DNA of 64,000 nt from Eledone cirrhosa (lineage: Eukaryota), in the NCBI GenBank assembly GCA_964016885.1, contig OZ024753.1:7130001-7194000 (forward strand), given 5' to 3'. Position 1 is the first letter of the stretch. Every line of letters begins with the position of its first letter. The position numbers and the translations under genes are program-made. Positions 3,500 to 61,993 of this stretch are shown here, piece by piece. The notes below the pieces were generated by a model. The model was not told the DNA's origin and searched no databases. It saw only the letters and a list, made by a program, of their open reading frames with translations.

Positions 3500-3757
3500 A
3501 TAGAATAGAAAATGAAAAATAAATGATGCATCTGAACTCAATTTATTGTGTTACAATTGTTTCCCCGGCGGACAGGTCGATACGCGATCATTGTGTGGAT
3601 CTGTCTGATTCTGGACCCGCAGGTTCGACGGACACGTCTAGTGATTTCGGAGCATATTCTCTCAGAACATGCTCCGAAATCAGTCAGATCCACACAATGA
3701 TCCAGAAACAATAAATTGAGTTCAGATGCATCACTGATTTTTCGTTTTCTATTCTAT
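3500..3757. mobile_element. Nested fold-back element containing a degenerate hammerhead (minus strand 3548-3635)
   Basis: Three nested inverted-repeat pairs. Minus strand reads gtgt-ccgtcga-acctgcgg..ccgccggg-gaaa-caattg-ta-acac-aataaa. Confidence 0.65.
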
Positions 3758-3932
3758 ATATCTATTGGGGTGAACCGCGAAGAGGCCGCTTTCGGTTATT
3801 TATCAAATATTTCTTCATAGGAGCCTTTATTCTTATAGCCTGGTCTAATTGATTTTTTATATGGTTAATTGTGCTAATTGGGAGAGGAAATGGTATATAT
3901 TTTATCTAATAATTCTAAGGACATGATTTATG

Positions 3933-3998
<66 letters not shown>

Positions 3999-4000
<2 letters not shown>

Positions 4001-4183
4001 AACCAGTAAGACCCCGACAGCTGAGCTCAAGCCGTTTCGACGGCTAATTCTGAATTAGCCGTCGAAACGGCTTGAGCTCAGCTGTCGGGGTCTTACTGGT
4101 TCCTATTACCCACTCTACTACCTCAAGTATTGAGTACTTTGGTGCGTTATGGTCCACCTGGTTCCTTACCACTTTTCCTTCGT
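3999..4183 (+). mobile_element. Fold-back family A (PLE-end derived): perfect 105-bp palindrome plus 80-nt tail, in (TA)n
   Basis: 3999-4103 palindromic about T4051; carries HHR 3' half gaaa-cggc-ttgagctca-gctg-tc-gggg; (TA)n on both sides. Confidence 0.85.
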
Positions 4184-4215
<32 letters not shown>

Positions 4216-4313
4216 TATATACATTTTGAATTCATTTCTGGCTGCGATCACTGTAGAAATTTTAGTCCAAAATTGGGTATATTTTATTTTATCTAACTAT
4301 TCTTCAAACTTCC

Positions 4314-4417: not shown

Positions 4418-4486
4418 AACAAAGGAATTGTGGCAAGGAACCAAATGGACTATAACGCAGCTCTGCCGTCGGTGTCATACTTTTTC

Positions 4487-4490
<4 letters not shown>
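4418..4490. mobile_element. Family A, internally deleted inverted form
   Basis: Antisense tail end (aacaaaggaattgtgg..aacgca) joined to sense gctctgccgtcgg..ttcc; TA-flanked. Confidence 0.75.
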
Positions 4491-4645: not shown

Positions 4646-4847
4646 GTAATAATAATAAATTTGAAGACTAAAATCCAAAGAGAGCTCGATAAGGATAAAT
4701 ATATATCAAATATATAAGAACCGTAGAGCAAATATTTATTAAAATAACAGATTAAAGTTTAAGCAAAGAATCGCCGCTTTCACCCTTAACGGGATCTTTA
4801 AGGGTGAAAGCAGCGATTCTTTGCTTAAACTTTAATCTGTTATTTTA

Positions 4848-4853
<6 letters not shown>
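4646..4853 (-). mobile_element. Fold-back family B (palindrome 4734-4853 plus ~88-nt tail), in (TA)n
   Basis: Arms atttattaaaataacag..cacccttaa / ttaagggtg..ttttaataaat with an 8-nt loop; HHR 3' half gaaa-gca..tgc-tt-aaac. Confidence 0.8.
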
Positions 4854-5430: not shown

Positions 5431-5432
<2 letters not shown>

Positions 5433-5488
5433 AACGAGTAGGACCCCGACGGCTGAGCTCAAGCCGTTTCGACGGCTAATTCTGGACT
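5431..5488 (-). mobile_element. Family A, short arm only
   Basis: ggaacgagtaggaccccgacggctgagctcaagccgtttcgacggctaattctggact immediately after (TA)n. Confidence 0.8.
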
Positions 5489-5514
5489 AAAAAAAAATTA
5501 TATATATATATATA

Positions 5515-5686
5515 CAGGTAAAATTCCGTTATAACGAATACTATTATAACGAATTTTTCCGTATAACGAAATTTGTTTCAATCTCGGCCACATGCTTAAT
5601 GCATTAAGTCGATATCGTTATAAAGTTTTTTCGTTACAACGAATTTTTTTAACCCCCGTGAATTTCGTTATAACGGAATTTTAATG
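5515..5686. mobile_element. MITE family M1 (opposite orientation)
   Basis: ta-caggtaaaattccgttataacg ... cgttataacggaattttaatg. Confidence 0.8.
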
Positions 5687-8247: not shown

Positions 8248-8716
<469 letters not shown>

Positions 8717-11580: not shown

Positions 11581-11586
<6 letters not shown>

Positions 11587-11780
11587 AAGAAAGTATGGTA
11601 AGAAACCAAGTGGACCACGACGCACCAGAGTACTCGATACTTAGGGTAGTAGAGTGGGTGATAGGAAAAGAGTCAGGACCCCAACGGCTGAGCTCCGGCC
11701 GTTTCGACAGCTAGACAGGAACAGTTTGGATCTAGCTATCAAAAGGGCCGGAGCTCAGCCGTCGGAGTTCTGACACTTTT

Positions 11781-11782
<2 letters not shown>
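11581..11782 (-). mobile_element. Family A, diverged subfamily fold-back
   Basis: Same tail, arm and ttcc|tata end; longer loop. Confidence 0.8.
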
Positions 11783-34377: not shown

Positions 34378-34766
34378 AATAGAGGTGTAACACACGAGTT
34401 GTGATATATTAGTAAAAGGAAAAGAAAATGCTGACACATTTTTCCCAGTGAAAATTAGTTTAATTAGGAATAAGTATAAATTAATAAAAAGTATTGGTTA
34501 GTTTTAAGTTTTTACCGGTTGCGCATTTCTAATGCTTTTCAAAAATAATTTTTAGATAGAGTGCCCGTGATGTTTGCTCTAATTAGAGCAAACATCACGA
34601 GCACTCTATCTCAAAATTATTTTTGAAAAGCATTAGAAATGCGCAACCGGTAAAAACTTAAAATTAAAACTGAATACTAACCAATACTTTTTACTAATAT
34701 ATACTTATTCCTAATTAAATTATTTTTCAATGGGAAAAATTTGTCAGCATTTTCTTTCCCTTTTAC

Positions 34767-37271: not shown

Positions 37272-37491
37272 AATGGTTTCTTATATAGGTACTAGGTCAG
37301 CAATTTTGTGGGGAGGGGAAAGTTGATTAAATCGACGCCAGTGCATTACTGGTACTTTATTTTATCGACCCCCGTAAGGATGAAAGGCAAAGTTAACATC
37401 GGCGGAATTTGAACTCAGAATGTAAAGAGCCATAACTCTATGCTGCAAAGCATGTTGCCCGACGCTCTACCGACACTGCCAATCCACCGCC
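37272..37491 (-). mobile_element. SINE S1 (long form)
   Basis: Full length. Confidence 0.9.
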
Positions 37492-38300
37492 ATTTAAATA
37501 AGAAATAATAGAAAGGAGTCTATGCTGCAAAGCATGGTGCCTGACGCTCTACCGACACTGCCAATCCACCGCCATTTAAATAAGAAATAATAGAAAGGAG
37601 TCTATGCTGCAAAGCATGTTGCCTGACGCTCTACCGACACTGCCAATCCACCGCCATTTAAATAAGAAATAATAGAAAGGAGTCTATGCTGCAAAGCATG
37701 TTGCCTGACGCTCTACCGACACTGCCAATCCACCGCCATTTAAATAAGAAATAATAGAAAGGAGTCTATGCTGCAAAGCATGTTGCCTGACGCTCTACCG
37801 ACACTGCCAATCCACCGCCATTTAAATAAGTAATAATAGAAAGGAATCTATGCTGCAAAGCATGTTGCCTGACGCTCTACCGATACTGCCAATCCACCGC
37901 CATTTAAATAAGTAATAATAGAAAGGAATCTATGCTGCAAAGCATGTTGCCTGACGCTCTACCGATACTGCCAATCCACCGCCATTTAAATAAGTAATAA
38001 TAGAAAGGAATCTATGCTGCAAAGCATGTTGCCTGACGCTCTACCGATACTGCCAATCCACCGCCATTTAAATAAGTAATAATAGAAAGGAATCTATGCT
38101 GCAAAGCATGTTGCCTGACGCTCTACCGATACTGCCATTCCACCGCCATTTAAATAAGTAATAATAGAAAGGAATCTATGCTGCAAAGCATGTTGCCTGA
38201 CGCTCTACAGATACTGCCAATCCACCGCCATTTAAATAAGTAATAATAGAAAGGAATCTATGCTGCAAAGCATGTTGCCTGACGATCTACCAATACTGCC
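37437..38300. repeat. 82-bp tandem array (~10.5 copies) built from the SINE S1 head plus 5' flank
   Basis: Unit starts every 82 bp from 37437 to 38257. Confidence 0.97.
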
Positions 38301-40970: not shown

Positions 40971-41187
40971 CCACCATTTAATTTTCAACCATCATTGACA
41001 CCGCCACCACCACCGCAACCCCCCCCCCCCAACCATTATATTTACAGCGATCATCGACACCGCACCAAATCTGGATGTCGGTGAGCATGTCCAGCTAACC
41101 TCGCTCTCCTCAGTGCCACTCTCGTGAGGCTCCCGTAGCTGCTCTGAGTTCTTCATCCTCAGTATACATTAATCAGTATACACTGAT

Positions 41188-42135
41188 GTCGTTATGTAGC
41201 TGTAATATCTACCAAAATGGTGGTGTATCTATGTTGCTCTATTATCTACCAGCAATGGTGGTGACTCTGTGTAGCTATATCTACCAAATACCGGTGGTGT
41301 ATCTATGTAGCTGTAATATCTACCAAATGGTGGTGTATTTATGTTGCTCTATTATCTACCAGCAATGGCGGTGACTGTGTAGCTATATCTGCCAATACCG
41401 GTGGTGTATCTATGTAGCTGTAATGTCTACCAAAATGGTGGTGTATTTATGTTGCTCTATTATCTACCAGCAATGGCGGTGACTGAGTAGCTATATCTAC
41501 CAATACCGGTGGTGTATCTATGTAGCTGTAACATCTACCAACATGGTGGTGTATTTATGTTGCTCTATTATCTACCAGCAATGGCGGTGGCTGTGTAGCT
41601 ATATCTGCCAATACCGGTGGTGTATCTATGTAGCTGTAATGTCTACGAAAATGGTGGTGTATTTATGTTGCTCTATTATCTACCAGCAATGGCGGTGACT
41701 CTGTGTAGCTATATCTACCAAATACCGGTGGTGTATCTATGTAGCTGTAATATCTACCAAATGGTGGTGTATCTATGTTGCTCTATTATCTACCAGCAAT
41801 GGCGGTGACTCTGTGTATCTATGTAGCTGTAATATCTACCAAAAATGGTGTCTTTATATAGCTGTAATATCTACCAATAACTTGTGATGTCTTTATATAG
41901 CTGTAATATCTACCAATAACTGGTAATGTCTTTATATAGCTGTAATATCTACCAATAACTTGTGATGTCTTTATATAGCTGTAATATCTACCAATAACTG
42001 GTGATGTCTTTATATAGCTGTAATATCTACCAATAACTGGTAATGTCTTTATATAGCTGTAATATCTACCAATAACTGGTAATGTCTTTATATAGCTGTA
42101 ATATCAACCTCTAATCGTGTCTCTATATAGCTGTA
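41188..42135. repeat. Minisatellite: 6 x 108-110-bp trimeric higher-order unit, then ~7 x related 39-bp monomer
   Basis: ttgctctatt at 41234, 41344, 41452, 41560, 41668, 41778; gtctttatatagctg every 39 bp from 41850. Confidence 0.95.
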
Positions 42136-47490: not shown

Positions 47491-47882
<392 letters not shown>

Positions 47883-50105: not shown

Positions 50106-50440
50106 GAACCTTTAAGACTAAGTCTTACTTTATAAAGAAGACCTTTGATAAAATATCTTGGAACTTTAATACTAGGTTTTACTTTATAAAGAAGACCTTT
50201 GATAAAATATCTTGGAACTTTAATACTAGGTTTTTAACTTATAAAGAAGGGCTTTGAGAAAACATCTTGGATCTTTAATACTAGGTCTTAACTTATAAAG
50301 AAGACCTATGATAAAATATCTTGGATCTTTAAGACTAGGTCTTAACTTATAAAGAAGACCTTTGATAACACATCTTTGAACCTTTAAGTCTAGGACTTAC
50401 TTTATAAAGAAGACCTTTTTATAAAATTTCTTCGAACCAT
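50106..50440. repeat. 54-55-bp minisatellite, 6 copies
   Basis: ataaagaag at 50132, 50186, 50241, 50295, 50349, 50404. Confidence 0.95.
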
Positions 50441-52449: not shown

Positions 52450-52765
<316 letters not shown>

Positions 52766-53520: not shown

Positions 53521-53585
53521 AGCCTGTCCGGAAATAGCAGTCGAAACGACAAGAGCTAAGCCGTCGGGTCCAGACGCTTTATAAT
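53521..53585 (+). mobile_element. Distant family A relative (hammerhead 3' half)
   Basis: gtccggaaatagcagtc-GAAA-cgacaagagctaagcc-GTC-gggtc. Confidence 0.65.
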
Positions 53586-61435: not shown

Positions 61436-61437
<2 letters not shown>

Positions 61438-61620
61438 AACCAGTAAGACCCCGACAGCTGAGCTCAAGCCGTTTCGACGGCTAATTCAGAATTAGCCGTC
61501 GAAACGGCTTGAGCTCAGCTGTCGGGGTCTTACTGGTTCCTATTACCCACTCTACTACCTCAAGTATTGAGTACTTTGGTGCGTTATGGTCCACCTGGTT
61601 CCTTACCACATTTCCTTCGT
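61436..61620 (+). mobile_element. Family A fold-back, near-identical to 3999-4183
   Basis: Differs only at the centre base and one tail base. Confidence 0.88.
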
Positions 61621-61891: not shown

Positions 61892-61993
61892 AGCTTAAGC
61901 TCTGCCGTCGGGGTTTTGAACAGTCTCCTACCTTAATTATTGAGTACTGTGGTGCGTTATGGTCCTTCTGGTTGCTTACCACACTACCTTCGT
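61892..61993 (+). mobile_element. Family A diverged linear fragment
   Basis: gctctgccgtcgggg..ggtgcgttatggtcc..ccttcgt-(TA). Confidence 0.75.

Follow-up and report, generated by a model that had tools for sequence, protein, structure and literature searches.

Penelope-like retroelements (PLEs) of the Hydra clade, which is defined by motifs of the open reading frame (ORF) in section 11 of PMC8557442, encode a reverse transcriptase (RT) followed by a C-terminal GIY-YIG endonuclease, with RW(K/R), DKT, CxCx5C, CxxC and CxH motifs and no CCHH motif. As exemplified by Hydra-1_Obim, they insert into (TA)n targets and carry a type I hammerhead ribozyme near the 3' end. An inverted truncated copy and a tail are described in the same source as general PLE traits, and an internal pLTR promoter of PLEs has already been published. 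The hammerheads described in PMC4209133 are of type I, lie in the pLTR, combine a long helix II with a short helix I, a G10.1-C11.1 pair and a palindromic loop III, and mostly occur in single truncated elements; a U3-A8 core is reported there as a variant in Schistosoma.

In the case of Poseidon PAc of Anolis, PMC11167929 describes in vitro a PLE protein that cuts and extends both strands of AT-rich targets from two internal RT start sites bounding the tail, 5' truncation of the RNA giving a shorter product. The 3-8 pair was needed in a PLE hammerhead in that study, no RNA reads ending at the ribozyme site were found, cleavage was unneeded in vitro and the inverted arm is left unexplained in the available text. 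Head-to-head pLTRs have been proposed to arise by self-priming on an antisense template (PMC3846280). In twin priming of L1 elements, as presented in PMC11702581, a second primer is provided by the other target strand, the parts are joined by microhomology, and full-length 5' junctions bear an extra G, considered a copied mark of the cap.

Here we analysed a repeat family, named family A, found in 10 copies in a 64-kb stretch of Eledone cirrhosa DNA (the window), with genome-wide counts obtained on the genome of 3.0 Gb. Family A almost certainly consists of 3' stubs that a PLE of the Hydra clade has left in (TA)n. Its copies are likely to be 5'-truncated head-to-head insertions, in which two RTs starting from two priming sites would run off a probably capped RNA 5' end located in loop II of the hammerhead, a reading drawn from sequence. 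The identity of the parent, the in silico fold of the whole hammerhead, the build from a site-A arm and a tail arm, the stop positions and the junction bases are directly supported by the data described below.

Structure of the copies in the window

Positions in hammerheads and arms were counted from the G of GAAA (G12 = 0). The copy at 3999-4183 comprises, between two (TA)n runs, an inverted arm, a forward arm (4052-4103) overlapping it by 1 nt, and an 80-nt tail. The features of this copy and of the nine others are as follows.

3935..3998, no strand: left (TA)n target
3999..4052, minus strand: inverted arm, from the element 3' end (site A, GGTTCC/TA) to 14 nt upstream of GAAA
4052..4063, plus strand: 5' limit of the forward arm (-12), with the last 4 nt of loop II and the whole 3' strand of stem II
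4064..4091, plus strand: 3' half of a type I hammerhead (GAAA 4064-4067, C17 4086, stem I 3' strand 4087-4091)
4092..4103, plus strand: end of the element unit, with site A at 4103; TAT comes next in the parent RNA
4104..4183, plus strand: 80-nt PLE tail, equal to the first 80 nt of the next unit's 5' UTR
4184..4221, no strand: right (TA)n target
4418..4487: older copy, inverted half tail and a site-A arm starting after GAAA; arms without overlap
5431..5500, minus strand: lone site-A arm, ending at -21; an A run comes next on the cDNA strand
11582..11781: old, diverged two-arm copy with tail
26526..26620: inverted tail and a very short site-A arm, without GAAA and without GUC
47615..47812: two-arm copy of the older subfamily, tail arm to -18, then G
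52551..52653: inverted 50-nt tail piece and a site-A arm to about -18
53522..53570, plus strand: old, diverged single arm
61436..61620: young two-arm copy with tail, almost identical to 3999-4183 with a different junction
61892..61993, plus strand: old arm with shortened tail, beginning after GAAA

The inverted arm at 3999..4052 would correspond to a cDNA whose synthesis started at site A. The sequence of the forward arm is TAGCCGTC-GAAA-CGGCTTGAGCTCAGCTG-TC-GGGGTC, with GAAA at 4064 and C17 at 4086; its stem III is closed by the palindromic loop TGAGCTCA and the predicted hammerhead cut falls at 4086/4087. The tail ends at site B (CCTTCGT/TA), which is again followed by TAT in the parent. The bases confirmed the original prediction that the arm consists of GAAA, stem III, a GUC site and the 3' strand of stem I, that is, the 3' half of a hammerhead. 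The accompanying statement that all ten copies miss a CUGANGA half held for the absence of the 5' half, with up to 5 mismatches allowed, but not for its sequence, as the missing core is UUGAGAA. The turn, which had been placed inside stem II, sits in loop II instead, and the 3' strand of stem II is retained whole. Three of the ten copies (4418, 26526 and 61892) also end before GAAA. At 52551..52653 the arms have only a 3-nt microhomology in common and therefore did not arise by fold-back.

Other repeats were observed in the same stretch. A TA-flanked asymmetric hairpin family with one long and one short arm, present at 4690-4850 and at four loci elsewhere (L004, L029, L177 and L181), may represent another family of PLEs, likewise built from two arms. 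Further long hairpins occur at 3570-3760, 5519-5685, 8356-8451 and 34533-34632, and tandem repeats at 14375-14824 (78 nt), 37437-38300 (82 nt), 41184-42109 (108 nt) and 50110-50437 (54 nt).

The parent element

Five of 30 exact arm matches extended upstream, and one of them, locus L031, proved to be a complete element with the order partial upstream repeat, tail, 5' UTR, 724-aa ORF, 3' UTR of about 1.15 kb and the end GGTTCC/TA. The parent unit is 3.55 kb long (3,549 nt), and the first 80 nt of the unit that follows make up its tail. The single ORF encodes an RT (YRDD at 348) followed by a C-terminal GIY-YIG domain (VIY...YIG at 591, recognized by motif only). It shares with the Hydra clade of PMC8557442 the motif RLRWR at 35, with R in place of the K of RWK, DKT instead of DKG at 117, the linker CxCx5C (CNCPDRSIC, 572), CxxC (CNLC, 670) and CxH (CKH, 698) in the C-terminal part, and the absence of CCHH, a single C being located between VIY and YIG. 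Pfam and PDB searches with the parent ORF or its alignment returned no match; the top homolog of the ORF has a Pfam GIY-YIG match, and 2,051 relatives at about 40% identity were found among 7,996 candidates scored. The placement in the Hydra clade rests on motifs, and the likeness to the published Hydra proteins, including the octopus element, was judged by motifs and by eye.

The (TA)n target and the type I hammerhead near the 3' end also agree with the Hydra clade, as do the pLTR, the partial tandems, the inverted 5' copy and the tail, all of which are present in the family. With the exception of L013, all 30 exact-match loci terminate in TA runs, and exact junctions of the element end with TATATA number 7,247 and 9,048, the latter figure referring to an older subfamily. 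At least 62 ORF copies are 98-100% identical and arrays contain 3-4 whole units, indicating that the family is young. Unit identity within arrays (0-1 substitutions in one, 2-7 in another) did not tell circular from concatemer templates apart.

Several features differ from those given for Hydra families in PMC8557442. The listed families are shorter than 3.1 kb and their tails usually measure 30-40 nt; the Hydra rows of its File S2 show CUGANGA cores and loops of 3-10 nt, whereas UUGAGAA and a 37-nt loop II occur here together with more than 50,000 stub arms. A canonical CUGANGA and a short length (<3 kb), neither of which is found in this element, are typical Hydra traits rather than defining ones.

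Three other assignments were ruled out. The endonuclease is C-terminal in the parent ORF, which excludes the Naiad clade. MITEs have symmetric TIRs and a fixed internal length, whereas the ends here are asymmetric (site A versus tail) and each junction is different. Inverted pairing and the retention of only the 3' half in the stubs exclude non-LTR retrozymes, made of tandem units with whole ribozymes; according to the consulted part of bioRxiv 10.64898/2026.07.22.740005 these are likewise short non-coding PLE derivatives linked to pLTR hammerheads.

Two observations concern the surroundings of the element. Four whole units in an array at L312-L313 (G000:C1:91.47-91.49 Mb) are followed, at its end, by a 55-nt segment of the ORF repeated at least 15 times, and broken frames labelled by eye as LINE-type endonuclease and reverse transcriptase adjoin the element at L031:834-3940 and L022:1-1500.

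The parental hammerhead

The parent hammerhead reads ACCCC UUGAGAA GAUCGGCUA, a 37-nt loop, UAGCCGUC GAAA CGGC UUGAGCUCA GCUG UC GGGGU. Longer copies had been expected to carry a cccc-CTGANGA-gac segment upstream of the arm; the complementary strands of stems I and II (ACCCC ... GATCGGCTA) were found as anticipated, while the core turned out to be the variant UUGAGAA, with U3-A8 replacing C3-G8. The type I core is present, with U4 G5 A6, A9, G12 A13 A14, A15.1-U16.1, H17 and a 3-8 pair. The minimum free energy structure is predicted in silico to be a type I three-way junction with helix pair probabilities of 0.62-0.99; the motif was no more stable than its shuffles (z -0.77). An Rfam scan of the parent motif and the window detected no hammerhead and returned only sub-threshold hairpin matches.

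Among 65 distinct motifs, retrieved with a search pattern that already included core positions 4-6 and 12-15, position 7 was variable (14/65), and positions 8, 9, 16.1 and 17 were conserved in 61-64. The 3-8 pair was U3-A8 in 43 of these motifs and in 74 of 75 young-subfamily copies, while the C3-A8 mismatch occurred in 18 of the 65. Helix changes were one-sided only (G-U/G-C in stem III), with no two-sided covariation, the subfamilies being too close. C3-A8 in particular presumably represents a weak core. In the older subfamily with 9,048 end junctions (L046-L048, L050, L052, L053, L055, L057-L059 and others) more than half of the sampled cores are C3-A8, and an intact core therefore seems unnecessary for spread.

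The general architecture matches the PLE hammerheads of PMC4209133, including the predominance of single truncated elements. Unlike those described there, the motif has a helix III of 6 bp, which allows it to fold as a monomer, and a long loop II that apparently holds the RNA start.

The 5' limit in loop II and the end at -18

The 5' limit about 10-25 nt upstream of GAAA, originally noted in the window copies, was found to be real throughout the genome. In a pool of 312 arms, of which 55 came from a set preselected to reach -11, 242 had their limit between -9 and -23, no arm ended between -24 and -58, 26 continued through and 44 were shorter, the last class including point mutations. Young arms selected by their 3' end only ended at -11 to -21 in 66 of 91 cases, with 15 shorter and 10 reaching -52 or beyond; for older-subfamily arms, 20 of 30 ended at -9 to -23, 6 were shorter and 4 went through. 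One exact 22-mer from the 3' half occurs 53,708 times in the genome and one from the 5' half 3,817 times, a count too low for subfamilies with different 5' halves, and the reversed controls gave 0. Depth in four contig sets of unrecorded kind drops about 13- to 20-fold at this wall and was not counted as evidence. The half ribozyme is a by-product of the position at which the template ends. Junctions vary from copy to copy, and each hairpin is therefore made anew.

The far limit most often fell at -18, on the A of TTAGTC (one subfamily has TCAGTC here), and TTAGTC at this site resembles the arthropod initiator consensus. The untemplated base following -18, a position chosen post hoc after data inspection, was G in 14 of 19 cases compared with 26 of 76 at other limits (p = 0.003). 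Among the first 100 of 5,633 matches ending at -18, 8 were subfamily read-throughs and the other 92 continued with G (40), C (45) or A (7). Hand counts on these 100 matches assigned 25 of the 45 C to the other arm's own base, and showed a G:C pair in 8 of 9 junctions in which the two arms end at -18 and are separated by a single base pair. G was frequent also after -12 (9/21) and -13 (5/6), and 5 of the 19 bases after -18 were not G. About 36 of the 312 arms extend to -19 to -23, and a single start site therefore does not account for all of them; T runs are frequent on these arms and may correspond to A added on the cDNA or to weaker upstream starts. No clear downstream promoter element was seen by eye.

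The extra G at complete 5' ends, the microhomology joins and a second primer from the other target strand are shared with L1 twin priming as presented in PMC11702581. The L1 arms are consecutive parts of the RNA, whereas those of family A overlap, both ending at the RNA 5' end. Unlike the expectation for a simple start-to-end mRNA, none of 30 full-ORF loci starts at the wall or at -18. A capped start needs an extra step, namely monomer RNAs primed only near their 5' end, and the absence of full-length units starting at -18 could be due to downstream ribozyme cleavage, which would remove the downstream priming sites.

The loop II end of the RNA might instead originate from processing, by a nuclease or by the endonuclease resolving an intermediate, or the stubs might be transcribed and spread as a non-autonomous family of their own. 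Co-termination demonstrates a template end only, the limits extend to -23, and PMC2377424 and PMC4209133, combined as far as their consulted parts go, place the D. virilis start upstream of the ribozyme. On the other side, the extra base is G at -18 and mostly an A of the cDNA at +23, indicating two kinds of end, the site has an initiator-like sequence, and the variation of the junctions among copies shows that each hairpin is made anew. We regard both versions of this explanation as unlikely.

Stall or template end

The original suggestion that reverse transcription stalls at the ribozyme was not supported by the long copies or by the behaviour of the paired arms. In 28 of 68 clusters (among the first 100 listed matches to the 5' half) both arms read through, compared with the 4-8% expected if each enzyme stopped independently with a chance of about 90% (p<1e-12). 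Moreover, 21 of the 30 top-scoring full-ORF loci reach the upstream hammerhead and none of these 21, which derive in part from the same arrays and are not all independent, stops in loop II; the remaining 9 end in the tail, in the 5' UTR or at +20. The joint read-through and the absence of loop II stops indicate that the stop is a property of the RNA molecule.

A stall caused by the ribozyme fold, or by a protein sitting on loop II, would agree with a limit that falls inside the motif and is spread across 15 nt, and a minor class of arms does stop at the stem III palindrome. Besides the correlated arm stops and the lack of loop II stops in long copies, this explanation has to face arrays that traverse 3-4 hammerheads in succession, stronger stems that the enzyme has already crossed and the extra G at -18. 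The evidence is less than complete against a variant in which the stall depends on the state of the whole RNA molecule. We judge a stall to be unlikely in the same measure as processing.

Two loci, L307:451-1174 and L306:3335-4493, contain mini-tandems, whose unit begins at the loop II wall, continues to 23 or about 730 nt inside the ORF and is repeated head to tail, followed by the tail. Such repeats would be expected if ORF transcription began at the wall and the enzyme jumped on reaching the 5' end of this RNA; they resemble the products of template jumps or of small circles, through which retrozyme-like repeats might arise.

Two arms and two proposed primers

In 97 of 100 arm pairs one site-A arm is combined with one tail arm, and the longer arm can be either one. 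Sites A and B each precede TAT in the element, and this TAT (UAU in the RNA) could base-pair with (TA)n once it is cut. Arms without any common sequence occur in about 14 of 111 insertions (15 were flagged, at least L269 wrongly), among them the window copies 4418, 26526 and 52551. Fifty-six of 100 arm pairs were identical across 40 nt and 90 agreed at polymorphic sites, and the arms therefore usually derive from the same RNA or source; the comparison of arm with arm did not separate one template from two. The arms of L270 differ by a 3-nt subfamily block. In L232, L236 and L270 the same private variants appear on the site-A arm of one insertion and on the tail arm of another, which suggests that some insertions use two RNA molecules. 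The layout is comparable to that of Poseidon PAc (PMC11167929), where likewise both target strands are cut and extended and two internal RT starts bound the tail; here both start sites precede UAU.

Alternatively, a single cDNA, or an antisense RNA as in PMC3846280, might fold back and self-prime the inverted arm. The identity of 56 pairs and the agreement of 90 at polymorphic sites would be natural outcomes of such a step, the recurrent junction AATTC/AGTCC resembles a hairpin with a 6-nt loop, and the A runs at some ends could be the poly(A) of an antisense RNA. This mechanism, self-priming at the ribozyme structure having also been suggested for the window copies, fits poorly with the combination of site-A and tail arms in 97 of 100 pairs and with the insertions whose arms lack common sequence. 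Furthermore, the tail cannot be templated by a site-A cDNA, either arm may be the longer, the L270 arms differ from each other and the ends coincide with the cleavage site of the sense strand. Fold-back is improbable.

Ends at the predicted cleavage site

Stops exactly at +23 were observed in 5 of 91 young site-A arms, at the edge of the search pattern, and in 0 of 30 older arms. Because of this edge position the ends were retested with a pattern allowing stops up to +25, which returned 295 short two-arm insertions in the young set. Among the first 49 of these, 20 had one arm that ended at +23 and carried untemplated bases, the other arm ending no more than two bases away, 11 were blunt joins, 13 lay at the stem III palindrome and 5 were other; most of the untemplated bases at +23 were A when read on the cDNA. 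Of the 279 insertions of the older subfamily, in which 8 of 14 sampled cores were C3-A8, the first 50 comprised 10 at +23 with untemplated bases, 1 blunt join, 33 at the palindrome and 6 other. The difference in +23 ends between young and older sets was significant (Fisher p = 4e-5), corresponding to 2.6% versus 0.7% per site-A arm, in subfamilies that differ also in stem II, stem III and age. Both arms end at the predicted cleavage site in about 2% of insertions, four-fold fewer in the C3-A8-rich subfamily. The 11 blunt joins are explicable by CG microhomology as well, and a single base separates +23 from the foot of stem III; pausing at that stem fits poorly with the smaller number of +23 ends in the older subfamily, because stem III is stronger there. 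The ends at +23 would be an indirect sign of self-cleavage after H17, and it is from insertion ends, unlike in PMC4209133, that in vivo cleavage would here be deduced.

Cleavage in trans, with the 5' half of another transcript acting on the half-ribozyme with which the RNA begins, is highly improbable and not required: +23 ends do exist and an RNA starting at -18 is predicted to keep stem III folded (four inner pairs 0.83-0.85) and carries both binding strands, but cis cleavage of read-through RNA explains the same ends and the 5' half normally pairs with its own 3' half.

Proposed mechanism and significance

In the mechanism we favour, with two primers on RNA ending in loop II, the endonuclease would cut both (TA)n strands and each 3' end would prime on the UAU following site A or site B. 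About 85-90% of the templates would be linear capped RNAs starting from the A of TTAGTC at -18, with weaker starts up to -23, and the cDNAs would therefore be only about 58 and 138 nt long. Trimming of the cDNA 3' ends and joining by microhomology would then spread the limits over -9 to -23. About 2% of the templates would be the 3' product of ribozyme cleavage, giving the +23 ends, and about 10% would lack a nearby 5' end, because of tandem read-through or circular RNA, and would give rise to long copies and arrays.

On balance, we lean towards considering the stubs, which number in the tens of thousands, a base-precise record of three RNA forms: a capped start within the ribozyme, a germ-line self-cleaved product that is rarer when the 3-8 pair is broken, and an end-less, possibly circular RNA leading to arrays. 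With a capped start inside its own ribozyme, the main transcript could not cut its 5' end.

Hydra PLEs, (TA)n targeting, inverted truncated copies, tails, U3-A8 cores and the internal pLTR promoter are already in print; the novelty lies in the family itself, which brings to a known clade an unusual ribozyme and ends that are informative about mechanism. No report of cap- or cleavage-limited PLE insertions was found in the literature searched, subscription papers, Repbase notes and bioRxiv supplements aside, nor are such insertions reported in the consulted part of the octopus repeat annotation (PMC13282606).

The family offers thousands of young insertions with single-base end counts, a subfamily serving as a natural core-mismatch control and intact ORFs, and the same end counting is applicable to any high-copy PLE. 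These data bear on whether PLE hammerheads cut in vivo, a point touched upon in the consulted parts of PMC4209133, PMC11167929 and PMC8557442, and on the origin of head-to-head inverted pLTRs (PMC3846280) and the regeneration of tandems (PMC2377424). If the proposed reading is true, the stubs would be genomic evidence of in vivo cleavage by a PLE hammerhead, and head-to-head pLTRs would arise from two primers on sense RNA.
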